A DNA stretch of 54,201 nucleotides from assembly GCA_045592305.1 (NCBI GenBank), contig JAZNUO010000136.1:1-54201 (forward strand), read 5' to 3'. Shown in pieces: positions 2,280-23,644 of this stretch (its first letter is position 1; every line of letters starts with the position of its first letter). Made by a program: the position numbers and the translations under genes. Source of the DNA: Eubacteriales bacterium. GTDB lineage: Bacteria > Bacillota > Clostridia > Oscillospirales > CAG-272. The notes below the pieces were generated by a model that ran no database searches, was not told the origin of the DNA, and saw only the letters and a program-made list of their open reading frames with translations.

Positions 2280-2441
2280 ATGTCTGTCCGCGCCATCATC
2301 TTCGACAAGGACGGCACCCTCCACGATACCGAAGAGGTCTACATGCAGGCATGGAAGCCTTCCGCCGAGGTGGAGATGCTGGCGCGGAGGAAGCTGGATC
2401 GTCTCATGGATATGGTTCCCCTGCCGGAGGGGGAGGATTGA
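2280..2441 (+). pseudogene. HAD-superfamily hydrolase N-terminal fragment (54 codons)
   Basis: RBS aaaggag, then MSVRAIIFDKDGTLHD (HAD motif I DxDGT). The ORF stops after 54 aa and a terminator follows. Full HAD enzymes are several-fold longer. Confidence 0.35.
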
Positions 2442-2486
2442 CCGTCGCCCCTGATAGGGAGAGCGGCTCACCGTCTCCCCCGGAAC

Positions 2487-2522
2487 ACCGCCAACGGTAC
2501 GTTCCGTCGGCGGTATTTTTTT
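2487..2522 (+). terminator. Rho-independent terminator
   Basis: ACCGCCAACGG / CCGTCGGCGGT stem (one mismatch) followed by ATTTTTTT. Confidence 0.5.
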
Positions 2523-2615
2523 GTGAAAAGACCAAACCAAATCCCCCCATTTGCACACGATATAGATGAACCCCATCTTCACCCAACCGTTGAGCCGCAT
2601 ACAACCAATGGTTTC

Positions 2616-2644
2616 TTGACAAACGGCTCTGCCCATGCTATACT
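2616..2644 (+). promoter_or_regulatory. Sigma-A type promoter
   Basis: TTGACA, 17 nt, TGcTATACT. Confidence 0.5.
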
Positions 2645-2690
2645 GAGAGCAAGGAAAAACCATTCACTCTGCCTACGAAAGGATCATTCC

Positions 2691-3398
2691 ATGAAAAAGA
2701 AACTTCAGGACAGTACCGCCTATTTCTACCAGAAGGACATCCTGCGCCCCATCGGTGCGGTGTTGCTCCCCCTCGGTCTCGTTGTGCTCTATTTCGGTTG
2801 GAGCTATATCTCCTACATATTCGGCGCTATGGCCGTCCCCGCGGGGTTGATTCTGTTCATCGTCGGCGGGGCAAAGCACATATCCGACAATGATGTGGCC
2901 GAGCTGATGGATCACGCCATGCTGGACTATGACAAGGCGGTCACGGATATGGTGGGGTACGAGCGTATCGTCCTCAAGCAGCCCGCGCCCTTTGAGATTT
3001 CGGCCTACAGCTTCGGCAGTGAGGCCTCCTGCTTCAAAAAGGGCAAGAACGGCACCCCCGTCTCGGATCAGTATACCCGCACCCATATCTTCTACACCAA
3101 GGACACCGTGATCGTGGTGGGACGCTCCCTCTCCCTGACCCGACTCAATGAGACCGACGGCGGGGGCATCACCGACTTTTGCGAGCACCTGACCCTTTCG
3201 GGCATCCGCTCCGCCGCGCTGGAGCAGTACGAGACCGCCGTCACCCTCACCAATACGGGCAAAACCATGACCGTCAAGTGGTGCGAGCTGGTGCTGACGG
3301 GGGAGGAGGGGGAGCTTCTCCGCGTCCCCGCCAAGAACGATATGGATGCCTCCAATTTTGTGGACGACATCAACCGCCGAAGCGCTCGGGGGGCTTGA
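2691..3398 (+). CDS. Hypothetical membrane protein (two N-terminal TM helices)
   Basis: Start chosen at MKKKLQ. The hydrophobic stretches LLPLGLVVLYFGW and AVPAGLILFIVGG follow. No recognisable catalytic motif. Confidence 0.6.
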   Translation: MKKKLQDSTAYFYQKDILRPIGAVLLPLGLVVLYFGWSYISYIFGAMAVPAGLILFIVGGAKHISDNDVAELMDHAMLDYDKAVTDMVGYERIVLKQPAPFEISAYSFGSEASCFKKGKNGTPVSDQYTRTHIFYTKDTVIVVGRSLSLTRLNETDGGGITDFCEHLTLSGIRSAALEQYETAVTLTNTGKTMTVKWCELVLTGEEGELLRVPAKNDMDASNFVDDINRRSARGA

Positions 3399-3444
3399 TG
3401 TGTTCATCGGAAGCACCCGCTTCCGATTCTTTTCCTTCCAAAAC

Positions 3445-3485
3445 AAAACCCGTTACCGACGGCTCTTCTGTCGGTAACGGGTTTT
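3445..3485. terminator. Bidirectional terminator between convergent genes
   Basis: Perfect 16-bp stem AAAACCCGTTACCGAC / GTCGGTAACGGGTTTT, with A/T runs on both sides. Confidence 0.7.
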
Positions 3486-3565
3486 GTGCTTATGTCATAG
3501 AGCTTTTTTTGGGGGGAGCTTTGCCTCCGCCGCGGGCAGAAACCGCGCGAAATATGTCGGAAGCC

Positions 3566-4147
3566 TCACCCGAACAGGGAGAAGAAGCGCTCCAGAAGTC
3601 CCAGATGCTCGAAAAGGATTTTGCACCCCATGAGGATGAGGACGATGCCGCCCACAAGCTCGGCCTTGGATTTGAACCTTGCCCCGAACAGATGCCCGAC
3701 GTACACGCCCACCGCCGACAAAGCGAAGGTAATGACACCGATCAGGGTCACGGCGGGAGCAATAGTCACCTCCAGAAACGCGAAGGTAACACCCACCGCT
3801 AAAGCGTCGATGCTGGTGGCCACCGCCATGGGGAGCATGGCCTTGGGGGAGAAGGAGCAATCGCAAGCCTCGGCACCTCCGAAGGACTCCTTGATCATGT
3901 TGGCGCCGATGAGACCCAGCAGGACGAAGGCGATCCAGTGATCCACCTGCTCGATGTAGGCGCGGAAGCCGCGAGCCAGGAAGTAACCCAGCACGGGCAT
4001 AGCGGCCTGAAATCCGCCAAAGTACAGACCCGTAATGACGGCGTGTCGGAATCTCAGCTTGGGAGCGGACAACCCCTTGCAGATGGCCACAGCCATGGCA
4101 TCCATGGACAGACCGACGGCCAATATGAATAACTCTAAAAGAGACAT
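3566..4147 (-). CDS. mntP: Manganese efflux pump MntP family
   Basis: MSLLELFILAVGLSMDAMAVAICKG with a duplicated SxDA(L/M)AVG motif. About 6 TM helices. RBS ggaggtt precedes the ATG at 4147. Confidence 0.85.
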   Translation of the reverse strand: MSLLELFILAVGLSMDAMAVAICKGLSAPKLRFRHAVITGLYFGGFQAAMPVLGYFLARGFRAYIEQVDHWIAFVLLGLIGANMIKESFGGAEACDCSFSPKAMLPMAVATSIDALAVGVTFAFLEVTIAPAVTLIGVITFALSAVGVYVGHLFGARFKSKAELVGGIVLILMGCKILFEHLGLLERFFSLFG

Positions 4148-4300: not shown

Positions 4301-5941
4301 TTATAATGTTTTTTTGTGAGCCGTACGGGAGATCGAAGTCCTCGCTTCGCTCGGGGCAAGCTGCGCCAAGAAAGCAGAAATGAGAGCCTTACTTGCAGCT
4401 TGCAGGTTTCTCTTACCGAAACAAATCCTCAAAAAAGCAAGAGCACCGTATTCGCGGTGCTCTTGCTTTTTTGATGAAGCGGACGATGCAACGTCCGAAC
4501 TATTTGCCATATTTTCAATTTCTTCAGTTGTAGGTATATCGATTGGCTTATCATCGAAGGTGAGGAACACCTTGATGTAATCGTCATAAACGAATATCGC
4601 TTTGACGAGACCGTCAATCAAACGTTCCTTGTTTTTCTCAAACCTCAAATCGAGATTGCGGAACTTATGCAGTGTGAACAGGATGAAATCCTTTGTGATT
4701 TTTGGTTTCTTGTCTTCTTCCACCTTGATATTCCACTTGATTTTTTCTTCCTCTGCCTCAAGCTCCTCCAAGCGTGATTTGGTCGTGCGAGTGACAACGC
4801 CCTTTTCGATAGCCTTCATAATGTTGTCAATTGAGGATTGAACCTCTTTGAGTTGAGCCTCAAGCGCAAGAATCATTTCATCGTCCTCGTTTAAGAGAGC
4901 CATCACGTCATCTGCCATATCACTGAGAAGCTTATCGTTATTCAGCCAAGCGGATATCTGCTCGATGACCTTGTCCTCGATCCAATCCTTGCGAATTGCC
5001 TTGCGGTCACATTCGTGGCGTTTGGCACTGGCACATTTGTAATAGCGGTATATCATGCCATTTGGTTTGTTTGCGCTATCGCCGACAAACATGGAATTGC
5101 ATGTTCCGCAGAACAGCTTGGTTGTGAGTAAATATCTCTCGGGCGCTTTCGCTTTGCCCGTTGCATGCTTGTTTTGTTTCATACGAATGGCAACCCTTTC
5201 AAAAATGTCTTTGGAAACGATAGCAGGGATGGCGTTAGGAACTACGATCTCCTTGTATGCGTACTCGCCAATATATCTGCGGTTGGCAAATATACGTGCA
5301 AGGGAGTTTTTATTGAATCGATTGCCCTTGGACGTGCGGATGCCTCTTGCATTCAGATCTTCAACAATGTCGGTAATGGACTCGCCACCTGCGTATCTGC
5401 GGAACATCTCGATTACAAGCGGAGCTTTTTCGGGATCGGGCTGATAATGCTGTTCCTCGTCTATCATATAGCCGAAAGGAATATTGCCACCGTTAAAGCG
5501 GCATTTGAGAGCATTCTCGGTCATACCACGCGATACCTTCTCAGCCAGATCAGCGGAATAGTATTCAGCCATACCTTCAAGAACGGACTCAAGAATGATA
5601 CCTTCCGCACCCTCGGAGATGGATTCGGTAGCGGAAACGACCTTGACATCGTTCTTACGCAGCATCGCCTTGTACCTTGCCGAATCGTAACGGTTACGAG
5701 AGAATCGATCGAGCTTCCAAACGATAACCACATCAAAGCCCTTTTTCGCACTGTCCTTTATCATTCGCTGGAATTCAGGGCGGTTATCCGTTTTGGCAGA
5801 ATATGCCCTGTCAATATACGTTCCGACAATATCGATTCCATTCTTCTTGGCATACGCTGTGTTCTCACGAAGCTGCCCCTCAATGGATTCCTCACGCTGA
5901 TTGTCCGAAGAATAGCGTGCATAGATTACACCTCTCATCAC
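4301..5941 (-). CDS. Large serine recombinase (resolvase domain, recombinase domain, zinc ribbon, coiled coil)
   Basis: VIYARYSSDNQ catalytic serine motif and KLDRFSRN. CGTC...YYKC zinc ribbon. 546 codons. The last 70 or so codons run through a terminator hairpin and the att-like repeat. Confidence 0.9.
   Translation of the reverse strand: MMRGVIYARYSSDNQREESIEGQLRENTAYAKKNGIDIVGTYIDRAYSAKTDNRPEFQRMIKDSAKKGFDVVIVWKLDRFSRNRYDSARYKAMLRKNDVKVVSATESISEGAEGIILESVLEGMAEYYSADLAEKVSRGMTENALKCRFNGGNIPFGYMIDEEQHYQPDPEKAPLVIEMFRRYAGGESITDIVEDLNARGIRTSKGNRFNKNSLARIFANRRYIGEYAYKEIVVPNAIPAIVSKDIFERVAIRMKQNKHATGKAKAPERYLLTTKLFCGTCNSMFVGDSANKPNGMIYRYYKCASAKRHECDRKAIRKDWIEDKVIEQISAWLNNDKLLSDMADDVMALLNEDDEMILALEAQLKEVQSSIDNIMKAIEKGVVTRTTKSRLEELEAEEEKIKWNIKVEEDKKPKITKDFILFTLHKFRNLDLRFEKNKERLIDGLVKAIFVYDDYIKVFLTFDDKPIDIPTTEEIENMANSSDVASSASSKKQEHREYGALAFLRICFGKRNLQAASKALISAFLAQLAPSEARTSISRTAHKKTL
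4313..4337 (-). repeat. Imperfect copy of the tRNA-Glu 3' end (att-like direct repeat, left junction)
   Basis: TTTGTGAGCCGTACGGGAGATCGAA vs TTTGGTGACCCGTACGGGAATCGAA at 26044-26068, in the same orientation. About 22 identities with two 1-nt indels. Confidence 0.55.
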
Positions 5942-6305: not shown

Positions 6306-6587
6306 ATGAAAAGCATGATAAAAGAGTTATGGCGAGGAAATATTATGCCGCCCGAGGACAGCAGACACAACACCCCCGAGATGAAACAGCTATTGGAATA
6401 CATTAGTCGGCACAACGATGACTTGCAAAAAACAATGACGGACGAGCAAAAAGAGATATTCGAGAAATTCAACGACTGCTGGAGCGAGTATGCAAGTCTC
6501 TCTGATGAAGCGTTGTTCGAGTATGCTTTCAGATTAGGCGCACAACTGATGCTTGAAACACAGTTGCAACTCAATAAAGAGGGGTAA
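6306..6587 (+). CDS. Small hypothetical protein (93 aa, helical)
   Basis: RBS aggaggt. Tightly followed by the XRE regulator gene. Confidence 0.55.
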   Translation: MKSMIKELWRGNIMPPEDSRHNTPEMKQLLEYISRHNDDLQKTMTDEQKEIFEKFNDCWSEYASLSDEALFEYAFRLGAQLMLETQLQLNKEG

Positions 6588-6592
6588 CTGCA

Positions 6593-6946
6593 ATGCTAAA
6601 ATCAACTTTTCTTAAATCAGTTGGGCGGCGCATTGCGAAAGCTCGCACAGATAAAGGATATAGCCAAGCAACGCTTGCCGAAAAAGCCAATATTTCAGTC
6701 AGCCATTTGAGTAATATCGAGCGCGGGAGAAAAAGCCTAAGTGCCGAAGTCTTACTTAAAATTGCCGAAGCCTTGCAAATGTCGGCAGATGGCATATTGT
6801 TCACCGATATTCCTCAAGTACATAAAGAAGTGGAAAGTCAAATAGACGTCAACCTCAATAATTGTACTGTAAGAGAGAAAGAATTTATACTTAAGCTCAT
6901 CAAGGATATAGGTGCATTTATTACCGAGATTAAGACGGAACTTTAA
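6593..6946 (+). CDS. XRE-family helix-turn-helix transcriptional regulator
   Basis: GYSQATLAEKANISVSHLSNIERGRKSLS is a classic Cro/CI HTH. Confidence 0.85.
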   Translation: MLKSTFLKSVGRRIAKARTDKGYSQATLAEKANISVSHLSNIERGRKSLSAEVLLKIAEALQMSADGILFTDIPQVHKEVESQIDVNLNNCTVREKEFILKLIKDIGAFITEIKTEL

Positions 6947-6956
6947 TAACCCAAAG

Positions 6957-6996
6957 GAGATACGAGTCAGTATTTTGATTCGTATCTCTGTTTTTT
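6957..6996 (+). terminator. Rho-independent terminator
   Basis: GAGATACGA / TCGTATCTC stem followed by TGTTTTTT. Confidence 0.6.
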
Positions 6997-7135
6997 ATAA
7001 TTCATATAGTCCATAGGCTATATCATAGTCTGGGGATTATTTTCTTTTTAACTGATATTTGATACAATAATAGCAAGCATAAATATATTCATCTTATCGT
7101 GATAAAATAATTAGGTAGAAGGAGGATGATAGAAT

Positions 7136-7975
7136 ATGAGAAAAATAACAACTGAAATAATAAAATCATTCAATGACTATCTGATTAACGAGGAAAAGGC
7201 GGCGGCAACCGTCAACAAGTACCTGCACGATGTAGGAGAATTTCAAACATGGCTTGGCGAGCAGGAGCTATGTAAAACAGCAGTTCTTGCATACAAGTCA
7301 TACCTTTGCGAGCATTACGCCCCTGCAAGTGTCAATGCCGCGCTTTCTTCACTCAACAGCTTTTTCGATTTTATGGAGTGGTATGATTTGAGAGTGAAAA
7401 ATCTCAAAATTCAAAAGCAGATCTTTGCCTCCACAGACAAGGAATTGACCAAAGCCGAATATGACCGCCTTTTGCAAGCGGCAAAGCAGAAGAAAAACGA
7501 GCGCTTGTATCTCTTAATGCAGACGATATGCTCCACGGGAATCCGTGTATCCGAGGTGCGCTACGTTACTGTCGAGGCAGTGGTGTGCGGTATTGCCGAG
7601 ATCAACTGCAAGGGCAAGCGCAGACAGGTATTTTTGCCGAAGCAGCTTTGTCAGATCTTAAAGCAATATATTAAGGAGCAAAAAATAAAAAGCGGCGCCG
7701 TGTTCGTAACGAAGAACGGCAATCCGCTTGATAGATCAAATATTTGGAGTGATATGAAAAAGCTATGTAAGACGGCGAACGTGTCGGAGAAGAAGGTCTT
7801 TCCCCACAATCTCCGGCATCTTTTCGCACGCACTTATTACAGTTTGCAAAAAGACATCGTACGCTTGGCTGATATCCTCGGTCACAGTAGCGTAAACACA
7901 ACGAGAATATACACGATGGAAACCGGCGAAGTTCATCGTAGACAGATTCAAAAATTAGGGCTTTTACGGTGTTAA
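7136..7975 (+). CDS. Tyrosine recombinase, XerC/D-like (candidate invertase)
   Basis: 279 aa. GIRVSEV (Arg), HNLRHLFA (HxxR) and LGHSSVNTTRIYT (His...Tyr). No arm-binding N-domain. Ends 18 bp before the left recombination site. Confidence 0.9.
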   Translation: MRKITTEIIKSFNDYLINEEKAAATVNKYLHDVGEFQTWLGEQELCKTAVLAYKSYLCEHYAPASVNAALSSLNSFFDFMEWYDLRVKNLKIQKQIFASTDKELTKAEYDRLLQAAKQKKNERLYLLMQTICSTGIRVSEVRYVTVEAVVCGIAEINCKGKRRQVFLPKQLCQILKQYIKEQKIKSGAVFVTKNGNPLDRSNIWSDMKKLCKTANVSEKKVFPHNLRHLFARTYYSLQKDIVRLADILGHSSVNTTRIYTMETGEVHRRQIQKLGLLRC

Positions 7976-7992
7976 TATAGCTTAATAACAAT

Positions 7993-8018
7993 ACACCACA
8001 TAATTTTCGTTATGTGGT
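7993..8018. repeat. Left lox-like recombination site (inverted repeat)
   Basis: ACACCACATAA-TTTTCG-TTATGTGGT: 9-bp inverted arms around an asymmetric 6-bp spacer. Exact reverse complement of 8217-8242. Confidence 0.85.
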
Positions 8019-8046
8019 AAACAAAAGGCAATATACATAAAAATAG

Positions 8047-8070
8047 GGCGTTCGGTTAAGAACGCCTTTT
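8047..8070 (+). terminator. Terminator inside the invertible cassette
   Basis: GGCGTTC / GAACGCC stem followed by TTTT. A second 11-bp stem lies at 8072-8100. Confidence 0.5.
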
Positions 8071-8163
8071 AGACCAATGAAATCAAAATTTTCATTGGTC
8101 GCCTTTGCTATGCCTGTTTTTGTAAATTTTCATCGATTTATGGGGTTAAAACGATGTTAACAA

Positions 8164-8192
8164 TTGACATATATACTTATTTATGATATAAT
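8164..8192 (+). promoter_or_regulatory. Consensus sigma-A promoter on the invertible cassette (currently ON towards 8275)
   Basis: TTGACA, 17 nt, TGaTATAAT. Confidence 0.7.
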
Positions 8193-8216
8193 CTAATGTG
8201 AGAAATTGTATTACTC

Positions 8217-8242
8217 ACCACATAACGAAAATTATGTGGTGT
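8217..8242. repeat. Right lox-like recombination site (inverted repeat)
   Basis: ACCACATAA-CGAAAA-TTATGTGGTGT. Exact reverse complement of 7993-8018. Confidence 0.85.
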
Positions 8243-8274
8243 GAATACATCAACAAAAAAAGGAGATAAATGCT

Positions 8275-8985
8275 ATGTCACAAATGGATTTCAACAACAA
8301 TTTCTTCAACGAGGACATTCCCCCTATCGTAAACTCAAGTGAGCCTCATATGGCTTGTTTGTTTTTGCTCGATACATCCGGTTCTATGGGCTTTAAAGCA
8401 ACCGACGGCGTTGTTCCGATTGATGCGCTCAACGATGCAATGAACAGATTTAAGGCACAGGTATGTCAGGATGACAAGACCTCCGATATTTTGGATGTTG
8501 CTATCGTAGAGTTCAATAATAGCATTAATGTTATTCAGGACTTCTCGCCCGTTGAATATATGCAGCAGGTGAATCTTACCGCACGCGGAGGCACGTATAT
8601 GGCTCCCGCTATCGAAAAGGCTATCGAGATGGTTGACGAGCGTTCTCGCTTCTACAGAAGAATGGGAACAGAACCCTACAAGCCTTGGATCGTTATGATT
8701 AGTGATGGTGCACCGTTGGATAATATCAGCGATGTTTCCGCAAAGCTCACTTCACTTTCCCAGTCCAACAAGCTCGCATTTTGGTCTTTGAGCCTTCCCG
8801 GTGCTGACAATAAGGTTCTGCACGAACTGTCCGGAGCAAGAGTTTTGAATCTGATTGAATACAATTTTGCAGGCTTCTTTGATTGGGTAAACAAGAGTAT
8901 GAGAGCAGTTTCCGAGAGTTCTCCCGGAGAAAAGGTTATGCTGCCTCCTGCAAATGAAGCAATTACTCTCGATCAGTTAGGATAA
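8275..8985 (+). CDS. vWA-domain protein, TerY-like
   Basis: MIDAS motif LFLLDTSGSMG, then GGTYMAPAI and VMISDGAPLD. RBS aaaggag. Confidence 0.85.
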   Translation: MSQMDFNNNFFNEDIPPIVNSSEPHMACLFLLDTSGSMGFKATDGVVPIDALNDAMNRFKAQVCQDDKTSDILDVAIVEFNNSINVIQDFSPVEYMQQVNLTARGGTYMAPAIEKAIEMVDERSRFYRRMGTEPYKPWIVMISDGAPLDNISDVSAKLTSLSQSNKLAFWSLSLPGADNKVLHELSGARVLNLIEYNFAGFFDWVNKSMRAVSESSPGEKVMLPPANEAITLDQLG

Positions 8986-8992
8986 TAGAGCT

Positions 8993-10126
8993 ATGATGTA
9001 TTCATACGGAACAACACAACAAGGTCCATATCACGTTCAAAAAAATATTGTCTGTCAAGATTTTCATTACATAAAGAAAGTATCCGAGGATTGCGTGATC
9101 GCCGCAGTTGCTGACGGCTTGGGAAGCGAATCTCATTCGGACGTGGCTTCAAAAATTGCGGCAACCGAGTCCGTTGAATATTGTTTTGCCAATCTTCCGC
9201 CTGAATTGACCGAAGAAAATGCTTTGCAAATGATTTCGGATGCTTTTATGCACGCATTACAAAAAATCACGGATGAAGTTGCAAAAGAAAACGGCGATAT
9301 CAATCAGTATGATACCACACTGTGCCTTGCTATCTATAAAGGAAGTAACGTATATTTCGGTCAATCGGGAGATAGCGGAGCTATCGTTTTATGTAAAGAC
9401 GGACATTACGAGGGCATAACAAAACAGCAGCGTGACGAAAACGGTTGCGTTTTTCCGCTTGCTTTCGGCAAAGAAAAATGGGTGTTTGGTTCAAAATCCG
9501 ATGTCGCAAGTTTGCTGCTTGCTACCGACGGAATGCTCGAAATTTTCTTTCCCGTACTCTTACACTCGGAAAAGGTAAACATTTACGTTGCTTTGGCGCA
9601 ATTCTTCATGGATAATATATCCTTGAAATTTGATGAAGCCGGAGAGCAAGCCGTTGGGGAGAAAATGACCGCTTTTGTGCAGAATATTCCCGAAAAGCAG
9701 GTCAATGATGATAAAACGGTGCTCGTTGTCGTGAATGATTCAATCAAACCCGAGCATTTGGAGGACTCCTATTATCAAGTTCCAAATTGGGCAGAGCTTC
9801 AAAAGAAACGCCAAGAGGAATTTAACCGTCTTGCGTATCCTCATTTGTATGCGAAAGAAAAAGCGGAGGAAGCCAAAACGGCTGAAACTTCTACATCCGA
9901 AGCAACCGAACAATCAGACGAAGCAAACAACACTTCCACGGAAACCGCAAAATCCGAAGAAACAAAAAACGAGAAAAAGGATGACGGCGTAGACAAAGTC
10001 ATTCCATCCGATACCGAAACAATCGAAGAAAAGGTAGAAGACAAAAAAGAAGCCTCGGGAGAAAAATCTCCGAAGATCCTTCAACAGATCACCTCTATTT
10101 TCAAACCTAAAGCAAAGAAGGAATAA
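8993..10126 (+). CDS. PP2C-family Ser/Thr phosphatase with an E/K/T-rich low-complexity C-terminal tail
   Basis: AAVADGLGSESHSDVAS and LLATDGMLE metal-binding motifs. The last 110 or so aa are acidic/lysine-rich. Confidence 0.8.
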   Translation: MMYSYGTTQQGPYHVQKNIVCQDFHYIKKVSEDCVIAAVADGLGSESHSDVASKIAATESVEYCFANLPPELTEENALQMISDAFMHALQKITDEVAKENGDINQYDTTLCLAIYKGSNVYFGQSGDSGAIVLCKDGHYEGITKQQRDENGCVFPLAFGKEKWVFGSKSDVASLLLATDGMLEIFFPVLLHSEKVNIYVALAQFFMDNISLKFDEAGEQAVGEKMTAFVQNIPEKQVNDDKTVLVVVNDSIKPEHLEDSYYQVPNWAELQKKRQEEFNRLAYPHLYAKEKAEEAKTAETSTSEATEQSDEANNTSTETAKSEETKNEKKDDGVDKVIPSDTETIEEKVEDKKEASGEKSPKILQQITSIFKPKAKKE

Positions 10127-10131
10127 TTGCT

Positions 10132-13100
10132 ATGACCTACTATGGTGCTAATAGAAAAACGTATATATTAGACGACATACCGATAAAAAAAGGCGGAGAG
10201 GGCGCAATTCACACGGTGTCGGGCAAGTCAAATCTACTTGCAAAAATTTATCTCGCGCCCGCAAAATCTCCCGAACTAAAAGAAAAGATCTCTTTGATGG
10301 TGAAGAATCCCCCCCGTCAGGATATTCTTGACCAGATCGCTTGGCCAATTGATATCCTTTCTGATGCAGGAGGAAACTTTGTTGGTTTCGTTATGCCCAA
10401 GCTGTCGATTGACGTAGAGCTTGGCGACGTATATAAATACCCTGCCAAAAAGAAAGTAACTCTCACGGGAGAGCAAAAGGTTATCATTGCGATAAATATC
10501 TGTCGCGTTATTTCCGCAATTCATGACTTGGATTACGTATTCGGTGATTTTAATCCTTGTAATATCGGCGTTAATTTGACCAACGGACACGTGGCTTTTC
10601 TTGATACAGACTCTTATCATATTACCGACAAGGCAAGAGGCAAGACATATCGTTGTAACGTGTGCTTGAACGGTTACGTTGCTCCCGAACTGATTAAGAA
10701 GTGCAAGAACACGGGATACGCGCAAGCTCCGCTTCCTACGTTCACAAAGGAAACAGACTTGTTCTCCCTTGCTATTCATATTTTTAAGCTTTTGATGAAC
10801 GGCTTTACCCCCTATAACGGAATTCCTGAGAATGAGCGTTCTTCAACGGCTTCTCCCGGTGTTGGTAACGCTGCAATAGAAATGGATCACTATTGCTTTA
10901 AGGCAGGCAATAGACCTTTGAGCGTTGCCGTTTTGCCTTTGCAAGCGTTTCCCAACGATGTGCAAAATCTTTTTACAAGAGCTTTTGACGAAGGACATCG
11001 TAATCCAAGCAAGCGTCCCACGGCAAAGGAATGGGATGCGGTACTTACAAATTACCATTCAAATTTGAAGCAATGTAATGCCAATCCGATGCACCACCAC
11101 TATAAAGGGTTGCAAACTTGTCCCTATTGTGAAGCTGATCAGAGATACAATTTCACAATGAGTATGAGTTCTGTTTACGGAACATCATCCGGCGCGCCTT
11201 CTTCGGGACAGATGAGCTTTTCTACTCCTATGACTCCTCCGCCCACTCCTCCCTCGGGTTCTTCTTATACAAGCTCGTCGTATAACTCATCGGGTAACGG
11301 TCAGTATTCGGGAACTGTTTTGTCGGGTAGCGGTTCTTCTACGAGAGTATCTCAAAGAAGCTCCAACGGCTTTTCGAGGAAAATGCCCAAGGCAATCATT
11401 ATCAGTGTTCTTGCCATCGTTCTTGTAGTCGGAGGATATTTTGGTATTACTACTGCTATCAATAACAACAAGATTGAAAAAGTTGAAGCACTGATCGCAG
11501 ATCTTCCTACCAACCCCGATTATTATATCGATTATCATCAGGAAATCGTAGAAGCATATGCGGCATACCAAGAGCTGAACGATAAACTTCAAGATAAAGT
11601 GGAGAATGCCAACAAGCTTTTCACTTGTATGGAAAGTCTTGAAGTAGAAGAAGCCTATGAAATGCAACAGAATTTGCAATTCACAGAAGTGATTGGCGGA
11701 TATGCTGTAAGTATTAAAAGTGATCGCACCTCCAAATTAAGTGGTAAAGTTGAAATTCCTTCAACATATAGAGGAAAGCCCGTTACTTCAATTCCAACGA
11801 ATGCATTTTTGAATTGTTCAAACATAACTTCAATAATAATTCCCGACAGTGTCATTTCTATAGGTAGTGGTGCCTTTGGTGGATGCACTTCATTGAAAGA
11901 AATAACGATTCCTTTTATAGGATATGAAATGTCTCCTGAAAATCCAAGATGGGCAGTCTTTGGTTTTATATTCGGAGATGGTGAATACAATGATGACAAT
12001 ATGAACAGAGAGGATAAAGTATATAAGACCAGTGGAACAAGCGGTTTCACCTCACAAATTTCTGAAGGGTCGGGCGGATATTTCTATTTCACCATTCCTA
12101 AAAGTCTAAAAAAAGTCACAGTTACCCTCCAAACTAATATTCCGAATTATGCGTTTAACAACTGTGATTTATTAGAAAATGTTGTTTTTGTTAATGATTT
12201 GAAACAAATTGGTAACTATGCTTTTTCAGGATGTACCAATCTCTCGCAATTTAACATCAATTACGGCGTTGAATCAATTGGAATTGGTGCATTTATGAAC
12301 TGCCGCGCGTTCGATACCATAGATATCCCCAATAGTGTAACATCAATAGGACGAGAATCGTTTGTTGGTTGTTCCAAGATTACAAACATTATAATTCCTG
12401 ATAGTGTTAAATCTATAGGTAGTGGTGCATTTGGCGGATGCACTTCATTGAAGGAAATAACCCTTCCCTTTGTTGGTAGTGATAGTTCTCCTGAAAATCC
12501 AAGATGGGCAGTCTTTGGGTATATATTTGGTGATGGTAATTATGATGACGATAACAACATGCAAAAAAGTGATAAAATATATAAGACCAGCGGAACAAGC
12601 GGTTTCACATCACAAGTTTCGGAAGGATCTGGATATTTTTATTACGCTATCCCAAAAAGCCTAAAAAAAGTTACCATCACCCTTCAAACGAACATACCCA
12701 ATTATGCATTTAACAACTGCGATTTGTTAGAAACTATTACATTTATACAACCAACAAAAACGATTGGAAATTATTCGTTTGGCAATTGCTCCGAACTTAA
12801 AATGTTTTCCATGTCATCATCATTAGAAAGCATTGGCAATGGCGCATTTATGAATTGTGCACGATTTTCAAATATTGTTATCCCCGATGGCACCATTTCA
12901 ATTGGAGAATATGCTTTCTGGGGGTTGGTTAATGTAACTAACGTTATTGTACCGAATTCCGTAAAAAATATCGGTTCAGGTGCGTTTTGTCAATGTAGTT
13001 CGTTAGAGGAAATAACTTTACCGTTTATTGGTAAAAATTCCAATCCTGATAATCCCCGATGGGCAGTTTTGGGATATATTTTTGGTGATAATGATACGGA

Positions 13101-13362
13101 TGATACAATGGAAAAAAGCTCCAAAATATACAAAACAAGCGGAACCAACGGTTTTACATCTCAGGTTTCGGAAGGATCAGGATATTTCTATTATGCTATT
13201 CCTAAAAGTTTGAAAACTGTAAGAGTAACTTCTCAAACAAAAGTTCCAGATTGCGCATTTAATAATTGTGATTTGCTCGAAACAATTATCTATTCTTCCA
13301 TCGTGTCTAAAGGTGAGAATTCATTTGCAAATTGTCCTGCAAACATCATTGAAGGAAACTAA
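10132..13362 (+). CDS. Membrane-spanning Hanks-type Ser/Thr kinase with extracellular BspA-type leucine-rich repeats
   Basis: Kinase motifs: KKGGEGAIH, LAKIY, GDFNPCN, FLDTDSY, YVAPE. CPYCEADQ zinc-ribbon-like motif. S/P-rich linker. TM helix AIIISVLAIVLVVGGYFGI. Then LRR units IPDSVxSIGSGAFGGCTSLKEITxP. Confidence 0.85.
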   Translation: MTYYGANRKTYILDDIPIKKGGEGAIHTVSGKSNLLAKIYLAPAKSPELKEKISLMVKNPPRQDILDQIAWPIDILSDAGGNFVGFVMPKLSIDVELGDVYKYPAKKKVTLTGEQKVIIAINICRVISAIHDLDYVFGDFNPCNIGVNLTNGHVAFLDTDSYHITDKARGKTYRCNVCLNGYVAPELIKKCKNTGYAQAPLPTFTKETDLFSLAIHIFKLLMNGFTPYNGIPENERSSTASPGVGNAAIEMDHYCFKAGNRPLSVAVLPLQAFPNDVQNLFTRAFDEGHRNPSKRPTAKEWDAVLTNYHSNLKQCNANPMHHHYKGLQTCPYCEADQRYNFTMSMSSVYGTSSGAPSSGQMSFSTPMTPPPTPPSGSSYTSSSYNSSGNGQYSGTVLSGSGSSTRVSQRSSNGFSRKMPKAIIISVLAIVLVVGGYFGITTAINNNKIEKVEALIADLPTNPDYYIDYHQEIVEAYAAYQELNDKLQDKVENANKLFTCMESLEVEEAYEMQQNLQFTEVIGGYAVSIKSDRTSKLSGKVEIPSTYRGKPVTSIPTNAFLNCSNITSIIIPDSVISIGSGAFGGCTSLKEITIPFIGYEMSPENPRWAVFGFIFGDGEYNDDNMNREDKVYKTSGTSGFTSQISEGSGGYFYFTIPKSLKKVTVTLQTNIPNYAFNNCDLLENVVFVNDLKQIGNYAFSGCTNLSQFNINYGVESIGIGAFMNCRAFDTIDIPNSVTSIGRESFVGCSKITNIIIPDSVKSIGSGAFGGCTSLKEITLPFVGSDSSPENPRWAVFGYIFGDGNYDDDNNMQKSDKIYKTSGTSGFTSQVSEGSGYFYYAIPKSLKKVTITLQTNIPNYAFNNCDLLETITFIQPTKTIGNYSFGNCSELKMFSMSSSLESIGNGAFMNCARFSNIVIPDGTISIGEYAFWGLVNVTNVIVPNSVKNIGSGAFCQCSSLEEITLPFIGKNSNPDNPRWAVLGYIFGDNDTDDTMEKSSKIYKTSGTNGFTSQVSEGSGYFYYAIPKSLKTVRVTSQTKVPDCAFNNCDLLETIIYSSIVSKGENSFANCPANIIEGN
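11836..13362 (+). repeat. Three tandem copies of a 555-bp (185-codon) unit in the LRR ectodomain; the last copy is cut short at the stop codon
   Basis: Units start at 11836, 12391 and 12946. Long near-identical protein stretches: SPENPRWAVFGxIFGDG...KTSGTSGFTSQ(I/V)SEGSG...IPKSLKKVT(V/I)TLQTNIPNYAFNNCDLLE. Confidence 0.8.
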
Positions 13363-13383
13363 CTAAGCATACACGAGGCAACT

Positions 13384-16300
13384 ATGAACAATCAGATTAA
13401 GCAAGATATTCTTACGATTGAGAGCAAAATCAAAAGCTTACATCAAACTTATTTGAATTTGAAGGTGCTTGAGGGCACTCACGCGCAAAAGCTTTCTTCG
13501 GATCAGCAAAAGGTTGATAATGCTTTTCAAGCGGCTCAGCAGAATATCAAAAACATTCAAAGAAATTATCAAAACAGAATAGAAGCAGACAAGGATTTTC
13601 TTGCCGAGCTTACGGCGATGGTGTCGCAGTTGCCTCCAAAGTACACAAAGGAGTACAAGCCCGGTTTTGCAACGTGTCCTCAATCTATCAACATGAATCA
13701 CATTCGTGTTTTCTATGAAATGGTTATTGAGGACACGGCAGAATCCTTTAACAATCGCCTTTGGAAAAAGAACGGTTACTACGATTGGAAGCAAATGACG
13801 CTTGACTTTATGCATATGGTAGAAGAAGCGGAATTGTATTTGCAACGAGATATTCAACTTGCAGTACAGGCTTCCAATCGCGATGTTCAGCAAGCACAGC
13901 AAGCCGCAAACAATGCCCGTCAGCAAGGCAACACCAATCATCAAATGCTTGAGCAAGGACAAAAGCAATTGTTTAACGCCGAGGTGCAAAAGCTTCAGCG
14001 TGAAAGACAAGCGTTTCTTTCAAGTGAGCTTGTGCTTGGCTTTGACCGCCGCGTGAGCAGTTCTTTGGTTGATACTGGCGGTGTTAAAGCGGATTGGTCA
14101 AATTACAATGCCAAGCGAGCAATTGCAAAAGGCATTACCATTGGTAGCATCTCACAGGAGATCCATGCGGAGTCTGTTTCCTTAACCGATCAATTGGAAA
14201 AGGCAATCAAATGCTTTCATTCTATGCCGCAGCTTGGTTCTGCGGTTGGTGAGGTTGAATACACAGATGACAATGCTTTGCCGTGTAAAGATGAGCGAGA
14301 GAAAAGCCGCCGCTCCTTTGATGAAAAAGGCTGGCGCTCGTTTGGTTTGCTGAAAAAACGTTCAAATGTGTTCGGTTACGAGGATGAAGAAGATAAAAAA
14401 GAACCTCCGAAAGAACGCTTTGCAGAATTCTACACTCCGTACACATTACCGTTGACCAAGAATTTTAGACTATACTATGCCAACGGCGGTAAAAAAAGCA
14501 ACGCTGTGGCAGAGGAAATTCAAAGTATTGTTCTCAAAAAACTTCGCGGATATCCTACCGATAGCGTGCGTACATACTTTATCGATCCCGTCAGCCGTGG
14601 CATCAATCTCGGTGTACTGAATACTTCAAAAGAGAAAAACGAAGAAATCGGAATTGGTTTATACAATTCCAAGGACGATATTCGTTTAGCTCTGAAAAAG
14701 CTGGAAGCGCATATTGATGATACCGTATCTAAGCTTGGTAAGTTTTCGTCCGTTAAAGAATATAACCGAAGCAATAAAACGCCCATTGAGGAAACGATGC
14801 TGGTCATATTCGACTTCCCGGAAAGCTTCAGTCAGGATTCCTTGGAGCTTTTGAATACCATTATCAAAAACTCCGACAAATGTGGAATCGATATTATCCT
14901 CTCGTCTGAATACGCAGCGCATTATCTTAGTCTAAATGACAACGCTCCGCGTTTTGATTGGTCTATCTATTTGAAAGAAAAGTGGACGTATATCACCCGT
15001 ATGGGCGATAGGTTTATGCTTTCTGAAGATGGACACCATTATAACAACTACGAGCTTTGTACGCTAACTAATGAGCAAAGAGCTTTTATTGATACATATC
15101 GCAAGGTGTATGCCGACAGTCTGAAGATAGACAACAAATTTTCACACGTATTCAACTCTCCGCAACAAACGGCATACAAGGATGCTACAAACGGTATCGT
15201 ATTGCCCGTTATGATTAGGAACGAAAAGAAGGGTGAGATTTGCGATTTCGTTATTGGAGCAAATGCTAATTCGACTCATGCTTTGATTACCGGTAGCACC
15301 GGTTCGGGTAAATCTTCTTTTTTGCATATGCTGATCACCTCTATTCTGCTAAACTATCATCCCGACGATGTGGAATTTTGGATGATCGACTACGGTAAGG
15401 TAGAGTTTGCTCAATATGCAACTAATCGCCCGGCATCTATACGTTTTCTTTCTACCGAAAGAAGTGAGGAATTTACGTTCTCGTTCCTTGATTACATGAA
15501 AGCCTTTTTCGAGCATAGGGCAGATTTGTTTGCAAAAGAAGGTGTAAACGACATCAAAGCGTACCGTGCAAAATGCGGAAGATTAAGTATGCCTCGCGTA
15601 ATCTTGATGATAGACGAGTTCCATATTATGACGCAACAGGTTCAGCAAGATATTCGCTATAAGAATCTTCTCGAAAACTCACTGACAGACTACCGTAAAT
15701 ATGGTTTATCCTGTATTTTTAGCAACCAAACGCTTTCTGCATTAAACGGGTTGAGTGATACGGGTAAGAAGCAGATCAAAAAGCGTATAGCGATGATGAA
15801 CTCTCTTGATGAAATGAAGTTAACCCTTGATGTTCAAAACGACAACTATTCGGAAGAAATGATACACCGAATGGAAAGAACAACAACGGGTGAGCTTTGG
15901 TGTAAGGAACAGATATCGGACAGAGATTTCACCATCAATCAATTTATGGCGGTTTACATTGACGATAAAGAGCGTAACGCCGTGTTAAATTCTATTGTAT
16001 CGCGTTCTGTCGTTCCGCAAGTTGATTGCGAGGTTCACGTTATAAATGATGCGAAGCGTGAGGAAATATCGATAAGAGATCTTTGCTCAAGAATATCTTC
16101 AATGCAAAGTAATCGCATAACGCCTATACACATGGGTGTACCTGTAACCATTGAGCGAGAATTCCACTTTAATATGGAATCGAGATATAACCACAATGTT
16201 TTGGTTCTTGGCAGAGATTTGGAGTTGTCACAAGGGCTTGTTGAGGTATTGATGGCAAACATCTATGCGCAGGGCGATGCCAAACTTCTTGTGTTTGCGG

Positions 16301-16980
16301 ATCAAATGGATGACATTTATCAGAATCTTCAAGATAACGGAACTTTTGATAAATACAATAACATTGAAGTTCTTGATAATACAAGTGACATTTGTATAAA
16401 GGTCAACGAGCTCTATAATCAAATCAAAGCTAAAAAGATTTTACGGCAAAAAACATTTATTCTTTGGTTGGGATATCCCGATATCTTTGATGAGTTTAAC
16501 GTAAGTCCTTCCAAGAAGGATGTAAAATTTGCAGAAGAATCGGTTAGCGTTCCAAAGGAGAATACGGGTATTGATTTACAGAAAGCATTGCAGGATGAAG
16601 AACTGATAGCGATGGCAAAGGCTTTGGATATGCCTCTGGAGGATTTGGTGCGCTCTATGTGTCAGGTGGAAGAACCTGTAGAGATTGTAGACAAAGATGA
16701 TTATTCTTATAATGCCTGCGATGATGTTAACACGTTGATACAGATGGGAGGAAAATTCAATCTGTTTACCACGATGGTATTTGCTTCTCACAGCGATATT
16801 AGAAGAATTAAAGGATTTGATCTCAATACCTTTATTCATAAGATAGCAACATCAATGCCCAAAGAAGAATCTTATGAATGGGGAATGAAGGCGTTTGCCG
16901 CAGATCTTGAAGCCAAAACAACCGCTGTCTATTATGACGGCGAAAAAGCAAGAAAATTTAGACCGTATATCATTACATAA
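13384..16980 (+). CDS. FtsK/SpoIIIE(EssC)-like P-loop ATPase with a Q-rich coiled-coil N-terminus and no TM segment
   Basis: Walker A ITGSTGSGKSSF (about 15290-15320) and Walker B VILMIDEFH (about 15600). A second, degenerate domain follows (VLVLGRDLELSQG, FILWLGYPDIFDEF). Confidence 0.8.
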   Translation: MNNQIKQDILTIESKIKSLHQTYLNLKVLEGTHAQKLSSDQQKVDNAFQAAQQNIKNIQRNYQNRIEADKDFLAELTAMVSQLPPKYTKEYKPGFATCPQSINMNHIRVFYEMVIEDTAESFNNRLWKKNGYYDWKQMTLDFMHMVEEAELYLQRDIQLAVQASNRDVQQAQQAANNARQQGNTNHQMLEQGQKQLFNAEVQKLQRERQAFLSSELVLGFDRRVSSSLVDTGGVKADWSNYNAKRAIAKGITIGSISQEIHAESVSLTDQLEKAIKCFHSMPQLGSAVGEVEYTDDNALPCKDEREKSRRSFDEKGWRSFGLLKKRSNVFGYEDEEDKKEPPKERFAEFYTPYTLPLTKNFRLYYANGGKKSNAVAEEIQSIVLKKLRGYPTDSVRTYFIDPVSRGINLGVLNTSKEKNEEIGIGLYNSKDDIRLALKKLEAHIDDTVSKLGKFSSVKEYNRSNKTPIEETMLVIFDFPESFSQDSLELLNTIIKNSDKCGIDIILSSEYAAHYLSLNDNAPRFDWSIYLKEKWTYITRMGDRFMLSEDGHHYNNYELCTLTNEQRAFIDTYRKVYADSLKIDNKFSHVFNSPQQTAYKDATNGIVLPVMIRNEKKGEICDFVIGANANSTHALITGSTGSGKSSFLHMLITSILLNYHPDDVEFWMIDYGKVEFAQYATNRPASIRFLSTERSEEFTFSFLDYMKAFFEHRADLFAKEGVNDIKAYRAKCGRLSMPRVILMIDEFHIMTQQVQQDIRYKNLLENSLTDYRKYGLSCIFSNQTLSALNGLSDTGKKQIKKRIAMMNSLDEMKLTLDVQNDNYSEEMIHRMERTTTGELWCKEQISDRDFTINQFMAVYIDDKERNAVLNSIVSRSVVPQVDCEVHVINDAKREEISIRDLCSRISSMQSNRITPIHMGVPVTIEREFHFNMESRYNHNVLVLGRDLELSQGLVEVLMANIYAQGDAKLLVFADQMDDIYQNLQDNGTFDKYNNIEVLDNTSDICIKVNELYNQIKAKKILRQKTFILWLGYPDIFDEFNVSPSKKDVKFAEESVSVPKENTGIDLQKALQDEELIAMAKALDMPLEDLVRSMCQVEEPVEIVDKDDYSYNACDDVNTLIQMGGKFNLFTTMVFASHSDIRRIKGFDLNTFIHKIATSMPKEESYEWGMKAFAADLEAKTTAVYYDGEKARKFRPYIIT

Positions 16981-16994
16981 GGGAGGATATAAAA

Positions 16995-17276
16995 ATGTCT
17001 GACGATTTGACCAAATTAAGTTTGAGTGAGCTCCGTGAGTTCGCCGAGGCACTTGAAACATTTAAAGCGAATATCGAGAAGCGTTGCAATCATATGGAAA
17101 ACGGAATGAATAGTTGTTCCAAATACATGAAGGATGAAACTTCACAGCAACTTTTGAGAAAGTCCGCACAATCTATTGCAGAGATTAGAGAATGCTTGAA
17201 TCCTACCACGCTTCTCCTTGAAAAGGTGTATAGAATGATTGATATTCTTACATCAGGATTCTCGATGGGGGTATAA
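16995..17276 (+). CDS. Small helical protein (93 aa), paralogue 1
   Basis: LREFAEALETFKANIEKRCNHMEN aligns with the N-terminus of the 17568 protein. RBS gggagga. Confidence 0.6.
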   Translation: MSDDLTKLSLSELREFAEALETFKANIEKRCNHMENGMNSCSKYMKDETSQQLLRKSAQSIAEIRECLNPTTLLLEKVYRMIDILTSGFSMGV

Positions 17277-17280
17277 CGCT

Positions 17281-17565
17281 ATGGCAGAATTGAATGTAAA
17301 TGTCAACGATGAAAAAATGGCAGCTTTTTCGGAATATGTTAAGCAATTTGGCAAAGAAACAAAAGCTGACTGTGAAACATTGAAGGCGGCTATGAAAAAA
17401 TTGCAAAGCGCATCTTCTGATGAAGAGCTGTATCAAACGAGCAAAACTGTTGAAAAAATAGACGATATTATCACAGATGCCCAGCCAACAATCAATCAGC
17501 TTTCAAAAAAAATCGACGAGTATGTTGCATTTGTTAGAAGGCTTAAGTTGGCTGCACGCTCATAA
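17281..17565 (+). CDS. Small helical protein (94 aa), paralogue 2
   Basis: EKIDDIITDAQPTINQLSKKIDEYVAFVRRLKLA aligns with KQVEDILAASEVDLQSLVRKISDYERFVVRLKMA of the next gene. Confidence 0.6.
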   Translation: MAELNVNVNDEKMAAFSEYVKQFGKETKADCETLKAAMKKLQSASSDEELYQTSKTVEKIDDIITDAQPTINQLSKKIDEYVAFVRRLKLAARS

Positions 17566-17567
17566 TC

Positions 17568-18524
17568 ATGGATGTATCAGTAAACGTATCCTTTAGGGAA
17601 CTTGTTAGATTTCATGGTTTGGCAGATTCTTTTAAATCGGATATTGCCAAAGAATGTAATGATTTAAAAGAGGCACTTGCCAAGTTGAAAGCAAACAGTT
17701 CTAATGAGGAAATCGAAGAAATAGAACAATGCGTGAAGCAAGTTGAGGACATCTTGGCGGCTTCAGAAGTTGATCTTCAAAGTCTTGTTCGAAAGATATC
17801 TGACTATGAACGGTTTGTTGTTAGATTAAAAATGGCATCGGGAGGATTTTCGTTTGGCAATCACGCTAATAAAGCGCAATCATTTAGATCATCTGTTCCC
17901 GATTTGAGGCACACTAATCAATCTTATACGAATGTTAACATCAACGGACAAACGATGTCTGTATATGATCATCCGCAATCCTTGGGAGACCAATTAAAAT
18001 CCGAACAAGGTAACAATGATTTGAATAAGATTGGTACGTGCTCACTGGTTTCATGTACGAATATTATGAAAATTGGTGGCGTATCGGAAAGCGAGAATTC
18101 CATTGTAAAAAATGCAACACAATGGGGATTGTGTTCTCGCTCTGGTGGAACGAATGCTTCTTTTTCGCAATTATCAGAGATTCTAAGTAGATATGGAATT
18201 GAAACGGAACGCAGTTCAACACTAACGCCCGAAGGATTGGCAAAGGTTGTTGAGAACGGACACGGCACAATCATTTCTGTTGACTCCAGCATTCTGTGGG
18301 GTGAGCCATCTATGAAGATCTTTCCTTCCGTTGACCATGCAATTACTGTTACGAGTGTTGCGAGGAATCCAAGTTCCGGCAAAATAGAAGGTTTCTTTGT
18401 CTGCGATAGTGGACGTTGTATGTCGAGTGATGCGAGCAGATTTGTCGATATCAATACAATGAAACGGGCGCACTTTTATGCAAGAAACCATGGAGCAATA
18501 TATACAAAGAATGTAATTTGGTGA
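17568..18524 (+). CDS. Helical N-terminal domain (paralogue 3) fused to a predicted papain-like Cys-His-Asp domain (toxin/effector candidate)
   Basis: The N-terminal 90 or so aa are homologous to the two upstream proteins. The C-domain has GTC(158)SLVSC, VDH(257)AITV and VCD(280)SG spaced as in cysteine peptidases. Confidence 0.6.
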   Translation: MDVSVNVSFRELVRFHGLADSFKSDIAKECNDLKEALAKLKANSSNEEIEEIEQCVKQVEDILAASEVDLQSLVRKISDYERFVVRLKMASGGFSFGNHANKAQSFRSSVPDLRHTNQSYTNVNINGQTMSVYDHPQSLGDQLKSEQGNNDLNKIGTCSLVSCTNIMKIGGVSESENSIVKNATQWGLCSRSGGTNASFSQLSEILSRYGIETERSSTLTPEGLAKVVENGHGTIISVDSSILWGEPSMKIFPSVDHAITVTSVARNPSSGKIEGFFVCDSGRCMSSDASRFVDINTMKRAHFYARNHGAIYTKNVIW

Positions 18525-18531
18525 GGTGGCT

Positions 18532-23623: not shown

Positions 23624-23644
23624 AATTAACAAGTGAGGTGTGTT

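Follow-up and report, generated by a model that had tools for sequence, protein, structure and literature searches.

Does a 198-bp segment that lies between a clostridial tyrosine recombinase gene and an eight-gene operon invert, and does it thereby serve as a switch for the operon? The question is raised by a stretch of 54,201 nucleotides (nts) from a Eubacteriales bacterium (contig JAZNUO010000136.1), the whole of which is termed the window below. Within it the segment, here called the cassette, carries a promoter facing the operon and is bracketed by two short sites in inverted orientation. A sequence-only reading of the window had proposed phase variation. The comparison with related loci described here makes it very probable that this is an invertible-promoter phase-variation switch with an adjacent tyrosine recombinase.

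Contigs that encode an identical vWA protein (the product of the first gene of the operon) allow the same locus to be compared between assemblies, and five of them, L138–L142, reach across the switch. All five have the same TTTTCG and CGAAAA spacers as the window. In L139, L140 and L141 the cassette is in the window orientation, with 94–97% identity forward. In L138 and L142 it is reverse-complemented, with 94.9% identity over 195–198 nts, and the right flanks of these two are 95–97% identical to that of the window. (Four other contigs encoding the identical vWA protein, L144–L147, start inside or just past the right site.) Orientation also differs at a sister locus, the recombinase of which, P0008, is 97% identical to that of the window. 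Between its representatives L131 and L132, the left flank is 100% identical over 1852 nts and the right flank 99.7% identical over 2759 nts, while the 247-nt segment that spans the two sites and the cassette matches, at 100%, solely as its reverse complement. L134 and L136 give the same inversion as L131 when set against L132, and two loci from species-level metagenome-assembled genomes (MAGs), L064 and L095, differ by such an inversion too. The earlier reading had predicted inversion from the opposed spacers, and had named a missing flipped orientation as the outcome that would speak against it. Both orientations are now found between the same flanks, and the flipped state is present in public assemblies (L138 and L142; L131, L134 and L136 relative to L132).

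The position of the crossover can be narrowed with a polymorphism in one inner arm, ACTAC versus ACCAC, that remains with the terminator end in either orientation of the cassette (L141 compared with L138). Since the polymorphism travels with the cassette, the crossover is placed in the spacer. As the 26-nt repeat is far shorter than the k-mers used in assembly, the flipped junctions must be present in reads. Many contigs begin or end at a site or at most about 60 nts from one (L005, L011, L017, L039, L053, L067, L085, L099, L103, L114 and L120, and further L125, L137 and L144–L147). Such breaks are suggestive of assembly-graph branching from mixed orientations within a sample.

Two contigs have structures of another kind. 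In L143 (1–320) and L135 (1644–2200) a flipped-cassette fragment is joined to unrelated sequence, and the expected second or left site is missing. These joins could be chimeric contig tips, deletions or the outcome of secondary-site recombination.

The anatomy of the sites is that to be expected of substrates for a tyrosine recombinase. A direct check of the window confirmed the coordinates that had been given for two 26-nt repeats, 7993–8018 (ACACCACATAATTTTCGTTATGTGGT) and 8217–8242 (ACCACATAACGAAAATTATGTGGTGT); they are 100% reverse-complementary and their interior is 198 nts. Each site consists of a ACCACATAA arm, a 6-nt spacer and a TTATGTGGT arm (9-6-9, a 24-bp core), and the left and right spacers are reverse complements of each other. 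A search of the 54-kb window for ACCACATAA-N6-TTATGTGGT, with up to 3 mismatches allowed, gave these 2 sites only, where 0.02 would be expected from shuffled sequence. As the arms are palindromic, an inverted arrangement is distinguished from a direct one by the spacer and two flanking bases alone; in the window the spacers point in opposite directions. Each core site also folds into a stable hairpin, and the right one would presumably be transcribed as a hairpin in the 5′ untranslated region when the promoter faces the operon. The other parts of the locus are given in Table 1.

Table 1. Positions of the switch, its recombinase gene, the operon and the surrounding element genes in the window
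Feature	Position	Strand	Remarks
Left core site, recombinase-proximal	7993–8018	.	arm 7995–8003, spacer 8004–8009 (TTTTCG), arm 8010–8018
Right core site, cargo-proximal	8217–8242	.	arm 8217–8225, spacer 8226–8231 (CGAAAA), arm 8232–8240
Invertible cassette, 198 bp	8019–8216	.	window state ON, promoter facing operon
Sigma-70-type promoter, TTGACA-17-TATAAT	8164–8192	+	12/12 consensus positions; TG at 8184–8185
GC-rich terminator hairpin, promoter-distal cassette end	8045–8070	-	minus-strand tail CTATTTTTAT
Perfect palindrome GACCAATGAAA-N7-TTTCATTGGTC	8072–8100	.	GACCAAT...ATTGGTC
Tyrosine recombinase, 279 aa, presumed invertase	7136–7975	+	SAM-like core-binding and catalytic domains
Putative promoter of the recombinase gene, extended -10	7100–7108	+	TGATAAAAT; from alignment
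Strong intrinsic terminator closing the HTH gene	6956–6989	+	15-bp stem, then GTTTTTTATA
Controlled operon (predicted), 8 genes	8275–19011	+	intergenic gaps 1–21 nts; Pfam
vWA	8275–8985	+	PF13519/PF00092
PP2C phosphatase	8993–10126	+	PF13672
Ser/Thr kinase with BspA-type LRR	10132–13362	+	PF00069; LRR_5 repeats, E = 3e-76
FtsK/HerA-like ATPase, 1198 aa	13384–16980	+	Pfam
Large serine recombinase	4301–5941	-	element gene, 1.2 kb upstream of the tyrosine recombinase
DUF6809	6306–6587		element gene
Xre-type HTH	6593–6946		element gene
S24-peptidase/HTH (LexA/CI-like) repressor	19081–19794	-	element gene
MobA/VirD2 relaxase	21673–23136		element gene
AAA_21 (AbiEii-like) ATPase	23633–25129		element gene

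The cassette promoter, which had been described as a perfect extended -10 promoter, does have every consensus base of both hexamers together with the TG. It ends 24 nts from the right site and 82 nts from the ATG of the operon; the 32-nt gap between the right site and that ATG, at 8275, contains the ribosome binding site (RBS). Toward the other end of the cassette are two strong hairpins (8045–8070 and 8072–8100; z = -6.1). The former meets a terminator scan on the minus strand only, since its plus side has just 4 T. The earlier proposal that these hairpins insulate the promoter from read-through thus stands in part. They do fold, but the terminator is unlikely to shield the promoter in the ON state. 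Working chiefly against the promoter direction, its likely role is to block read-through from the recombinase gene into the operon when the cassette is OFF.

The features of the switch can also be judged from its relatives. When one genome per species was scanned for ACCACATAA-N6-TTATGTGGT, at least 120 loci were found, nearly all in Clostridia; the counts that follow are among the matches listed. A search for partner sites (up to 2 mismatches per arm) gave 94 site pairs 100–1200 bp apart. Of these, 89, from 79 loci, have spacers that are exactly reverse-complementary, and 51 distinct spacer pairs are represented. The spacer has the form T....A in 76 of the 89, and in none of the 67 distinct T....A cases is its centre palindromic (about 4 would be expected). 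Conserved arms, with asymmetric spacers that vary between loci but are matched within a locus, are the signature of tyrosine-recombinase core sites requiring overlap homology, and it is this covariation that upholds the earlier description of the sites as lox-like with 9-6-9 geometry. Within the arms, the ACATAA beside the spacer is near-invariant and the outer three bases are looser (72 loci). The exact 24-mer of the window, spacer included, had 0 matches in a scan of metagenome contigs.

At 87 of the 120 loci, a recombinase homolog with 46–86% identity abuts the site pair by its 3′ end. The sequence-only reading had allowed that its stem-loops could be ordinary hairpins occurring without linked recombinases; this linkage is what was found instead. 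Homologs of the window's helix-turn-helix (HTH) and serine recombinase genes were present at 0 of the 87 recombinase-linked loci, which leaves the tyrosine recombinase as the sole gene with consistent linkage. In nearly every related cassette a TTGACA-17-TATAAT promoter is located 25–45 nts from one inner arm. Its direction in the species-level loci L001–L120 is toward the cargo (ON) in 15, toward the recombinase (OFF) in 49 and unclear in 8. The approximately 3-fold excess of OFF over ON would be accounted for either by biased switching or by cargo that is costly to express.

The distribution of the recombinase is broad. It has homologs in Lachnospiraceae, Oscillospiraceae and other Clostridia, and thousands that are 94–97% identical are found in gut metagenomes. 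Isolates with members of the switch family include Blautia celeris NSJ-34 (L007), Blautia hominis KB1 (L023), Lentihominibacter faecis BX16 (L032), Lacrimispora sp. DFI.3.58 (L079) and Clostridium transplantifaecale (L101). Plasmid and phage collections gave 5 distant plasmid matches and 1 viral contig, and the switch family appears to be mainly chromosomal or on integrative mobilizable elements. Complete recombinase-plus-site modules are present in some non-Clostridia bins, L027, L043 (a Gastranaerophilaceae MAG) and L081 (a Rikenellaceae MAG), and also in L148, an IMG/VR predicted viral contig whose spacer pair is the same as that of Blautia hominis L023. These four are due either to horizontal transfer or to binning error. 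The number of sites is three or four at some loci (L051, L062, L065, L068, L075, L091, L106 and L113). In L051 (6606–6981) there are two tandem site copies 40 bp apart on each side, with all spacers matching. Such multi-site loci would permit nested or alternative inversions.

The recombinase gene of the window has the properties that the proposed switch calls for. PF00589 (Phage_integrase) matches residues 103–261 with 105.5 bits (cut-off 27.1; E = 3.5e-30) and PF02899, the SAM-like core-binding domain, matches residues 9–81 with E = 1.1e-7. Nothing is N-terminal to the PF02899 match and there is no room there for an arm-binding domain. The nearest enzymes of solved structure are archaeal and of XerA type; the best is XerA-like 4a8e (E = 7e-21), others being 5hxy and 1a0p, and alignment to 4a8e and 5hxy reveals a full catalytic set: R137, K159/K161, H224, R227, H250 and Y259. 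However, the scores are far below the NCBIfam equivalog cut-offs for Xer proteins (XerA 137/220, XerD 133/330, XerC 118/335 and XerS 70/267 bits). Of the earlier description, XerC/D-type without an arm-binding domain, the missing domain is borne out by the domain search, but the Xer assignment extends to the fold only. The protein is also below the cut-offs for FimB and FimE (PRK09870 and PRK09871), with 31 and 20 bits versus 221 and 222. Its open reading frame (ORF) ends 17 nts before the left 26-nt repeat. Upstream, the terminator that closes the HTH gene implies that the recombinase is transcribed from its own promoter rather than from upstream genes. The candidate for that promoter scores under the threshold of a consensus scan, and it aligns to a conserved TTGACA...TGGTAAAAT...AAAGGAG block upstream of recombinase homologs at 14 other loci; an RBS, AGGAGG, follows at 7121–7126. 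That this recombinase is the invertase is the reading to which its position and catalytic residues point.

How such a switch would operate can be set out from these parts. The recombinase would bind the two 24-bp core sites as dimers. With spacers identical in sequence but opposite in orientation, synapsis and strand exchange would invert the 198-bp cassette without deletion. In the ON state, that of the window, the cassette promoter would drive transcription across the right site and on into the vWA-PP2C-kinase-FtsK-like operon, and any read-through from the recombinase gene into the operon would be harmless. In the OFF state, the promoter would drive antisense transcription into the 3′ part of that gene for the recombinase, and the cassette terminator, now directly upstream of the operon, would halt transcripts reading through from the recombinase gene. 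These ON and OFF consequences for transcription are predicted from the arrangement of promoter and terminator, and switching is expected to be frequent in this strain.

Several observations weigh against this reading of the locus. The orientation variants come from different samples, rather than from the window's own, and they fall short of strict clonality, there being 7 substitutions between L131 and L132 in 2.76 kb of cargo. The arms were set by the search pattern and their conservation is partly ascertainment (the covariation of the spacers is unaffected by this). Two orphan site pairs, L048 (1565–1795) and L093 (2017–2234), have reverse-complementary spacers and no recombinase homolog in the 8 kb examined, so action in trans is possible and dependence on the recombinase rests on linkage; the MAGs that contain them have further sites (L097 and L110). 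Finally, exact look-ups of the window recombinase found no record elsewhere (nor did those of the PP2C protein), and the vWA protein and close recombinase homologs were used as queries in its place. The derivation of all orientation variants from different samples, and the 7 substitutions downstream between L131 and L132, would suit a rare evolutionary inversion polymorphism, with the cassette effectively fixed ON in this strain, for example by a silent or inactive recombinase. However, orientation differs independently in at least 4 lineage pairs and across 64 of the species-level loci listed, the cassette is flipped between flanks that are 100% identical over 1.85 kb, and contigs break at the sites. 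Moreover, the sites are perfect, and the recombinase ORF is intact, with its catalytic residues complete and its own promoter conserved. A fixed cassette is accordingly given only a small chance.

Inversion might also be the work of another enzyme, with the tyrosine recombinase serving, for instance, the mobility of the element. The large serine recombinase 1.2 kb upstream comes to mind, or a recombinase acting in trans, for which the orphan pairs L048 and L093 and the precedent of Clostridioides difficile RecV (PMC5903667) can be cited. However, among the matches listed, a homolog of the serine recombinase is present at 0 of 87 loci and the abutting tyrosine recombinase at 87 of 87, and inverted arms around a 6-bp partner-matched spacer are the anatomy of tyrosine-recombinase sites; the serine enzyme (4301–5941) was rejected as the invertase for want of a homolog at these 87 loci, and the chance that any other enzyme is responsible is very small. 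That the DNA is static, the palindromes being hairpins or operators with loops that are complementary by chance or for RNA kissing, can scarcely be right. Each site does fold stably, a T-rich minus-strand tail follows the left site and an HTH gene is upstream. Against this, the DNA between the sites occurs in both orientations, as the flipped contigs demonstrate, HTH homologs are absent from all 87 related species-level loci listed, and the terminator between the sites would put them on separate transcripts. It is hardly credible, too, that the flipped contigs are assembly artefacts generated by the inverted repeat. While short-read assemblers can misjoin at repeats, and L135 and L143 fuse a cassette fragment to unrelated sequence, the 26-nt repeat is far below the final k-mers (k141 contigs) and the read length, so a flipped junction needs reads that contain it. 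The flipped state also recurs in independent samples, assemblers and loci, and the inner-arm polymorphism follows the cassette throughout. The invertible-promoter switch thus remains much the preferred interpretation.

What is conserved within the cassettes was assessed by aligning 29 divergent ones, oriented by their promoters. There are only two conserved blocks, the promoter and the palindrome GACCAAT...ATTGGTC (8072–8100 in the window). The palindrome is present, for example, in L001, L003, L018, L021, L054, L055, L057, L064, L070, L117, L119, L121 and L131, with a spacing between its half-sites of 13 to 29 nts, and it reads alike in both orientations. It may serve as an architectural aid to synapsis of sites 222 bp apart, as an accessory site for the recombinase or within a terminator that acts in both directions. 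The HTH protein (6593–6946) was considered, both for a part in the switch and for binding to the palindrome, and rejected, because it has no homolog at the 87 loci listed, many of which have the palindrome. The GC-rich hairpin at the promoter-distal end is found in sister cassettes also, and in the L121/L131 clade, as in the window, its T-tract lies on the side away from the promoter.

Recombinase and switch form a module of about 1.2 kb that recurs across gut Clostridia ahead of many different cargo genes. Homology between loci extends from about 60–140 nts upstream of the recombinase start through the outer arm of the cargo-side site, and past that arm by +0 nts for L043/L078, +29 for L003/L073 and +18 for L133/L132; where the window is compared with relatives 97% identical to it, divergence sets in right after this arm. 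Because homology ends at or within about 30 nts of the arm, the recombinase may help to place the module or to exchange its cargo. No third site or half-site, which would hint at transposition, was found at the left edge of the module. The identical recombinase P0008 is associated with two spacers (TTCTCG and TTCCCA), its neighbours differing as well, and in 4 of 5 genomes with two loci the spacers differ between the copies. In the fifth, a single MAG, L003 and L073 share TTCGCA, so that support for orthogonality is weak. It is tentatively suggested, as a rather unlikely possibility, that the 1.2-kb unit (recombinase with its own promoter, both sites and the promoter cassette) is a self-contained phase-variation module spreading horizontally before arbitrary cargo with natural heterospecific lox-like sites and, as part of the same suggestion, that in the window it subjects a TerY-P-like conflict operon, carried by a mobilizable element, to bet-hedging. 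If this is true, universal arms with locus-specific spacers would let many near-identical recombinases and switches share a genome without cross-recombining.

The operon of the window begins where the earlier reading had placed it, at 8275, and its eight genes are tightly packed to 19011. Apart from the four with assigned domains in Table 1, its members are small or unassigned ORFs. The consecutive vWA, PP2C and Ser/Thr kinase genes presumably represent a TerY-P triad, the combination of vWA TerY, PP2C and Ser/Thr kinase reportedly described by Anantharaman, Iyer and Aravind in 2012. The first three cargo genes have exactly the domains of the triad. The differences are that the kinase has BspA-type leucine-rich repeats (LRR), that an FtsK/HerA-like ATPase of 1198 aa follows, with four unassigned genes, and that there are no ter genes. 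PADLOC gave weak or partial matches to the cargo (TerY 4e-4, mad6 1e-5 and mad8 1.5e-17) and no complete system. The idea that the cargo is a known defence system was dropped, since these matches are partial and the cargo of relatives is mostly surface-related. At 52 loci, the first cargo gene mostly codes for a protein of the cell surface or envelope (Listeria-Bacteroides repeat, collagen repeat, dockerin/cohesin, BspA LRR, C-type lectin, SLH, Wzy and CpsB types); other first genes are of GGDEF/EAL and TetR types, and a few have defence-type domains (TIR and LmuA). In L003, an unrelated copy of the switch, the cargo is a stand-alone LRR_5 protein (2284–3705, minus strand), and LRR_5 recurs downstream of members of the switch family.

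To judge by its gene content, the locus looks like part of an integrative mobilizable element inserted downstream of tgt (964–2103). L138 has the same arrangement of serine recombinase, DUF6809, HTH and tyrosine recombinase genes as the window, and close relatives have TnpV where the window has DUF6809.

The switch family puts surface proteins, capsule genes, cyclic di-GMP enzymes and a vWA-PP2C-kinase-FtsK-like conflict module under what would be ON/OFF control. Gene presence in these genomes is consequently not the same as expression; in about three quarters of the reference assemblies (among the matches listed) the promoter is held OFF. Assemblies are also prone to break at switch sites. 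The 24-bp sites, the interchangeable spacers and the 279-aa recombinase might serve as orthogonal tools for recombination in Clostridia, and phase-variable control of a TerY-P-type module would provide a handle on the function of that module through comparison of locked-ON with locked-OFF forms.

Among known systems, fimS of E. coli is similar in being a short invertible promoter segment with short inverted repeats and adjacent small tyrosine recombinases that lack an arm-binding domain. It also has the recombinase genes upstream and cargo downstream, with orientation-dependent transcription into or out of the recombinase region. However, the window recombinase is outside the FimB/FimE family (31 bits versus a cut-off of 221), and its repeats are full palindromic 9-6-9 core sites, whereas those of fimS are 9-bp inverted repeats with flanking half-sites. 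A single recombinase takes the place of two, the cassette has 198 bp where that of fimS has 314 bp, and the window-type module is portable and found in many genera. In C. difficile, RecV-dependent inversions of promoters or untranslated regions (cwpV, flgB and others) yield ON/OFF heterogeneity (PMC5903667), and these too are inversions by a clostridial tyrosine recombinase. By its description, RecV is a single master enzyme that acts in trans on several unlike repeats, whereas the present family has one cis recombinase per switch. In contrast to the RecV switches as described, it also has universal arms with locus-specific spacers.

Cre/loxP and FLP/FRT have the same minimal form of site, inverted arms around an asymmetric spacer that sets orientation, with no arm-type sites, and there, as with engineered heterospecific lox sites, the spacers of partners must match. 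The arms are 9–10 bp and the spacer 6 bp here, versus 13 and 8 in lox, and while the variants of lox were engineered, the spacer diversity of the present family is natural (51 pairs among the matches listed). No close sequence relationship to Cre is detectable. The best relatives in sequence and structure are the Xer enzymes (XerA, XerC/D and XerH), the dif sites of which likewise have a 6-bp central region between inverted arms. Yet dif is single and at the replication terminus, while the window sites are paired, inverted and beside a gene, and the product is inversion rather than dimer resolution.

Literature searches with the arm sequences returned only unrelated primer or oligonucleotide matches. 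Those on invertible promoters yielded no description of this switch family apart from a 2025 survey of the hCom2 gut community (PMC11892184), and they brought up no account of a TerY-P-type module under phase-variable control. In that survey, inverton group 139 consists of 33 invertons, 32 of them in Clostridia, from 17 strains; an example has 26-bp repeats and an interior of about 205 bp (PMC11892184). The group has the strongest link to an adjacent tyrosine recombinase group (invertase group 35), nearly all its members being beside a tyrosine-type recombinase that is not regulated by the switch, and reads obtained in the course of passaging in culture revealed flipping (PMC11892184). Its one member outside Firmicutes_A is paralleled here by the Rikenellaceae match L081. 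By geometry, taxa and recombinase linkage, the window switch probably belongs to group 139. The words "spacer" and "palindrom" are absent from that text, in which core-site anatomy is not described, nor is cargo of TerY-P-like type. The switch family is thus widespread and probably already catalogued in the survey. What is apparently new is the TerY-P-like cargo, together with the anatomy of the sites, with their locus-specific spacers, and the portable 1.2-kb module.

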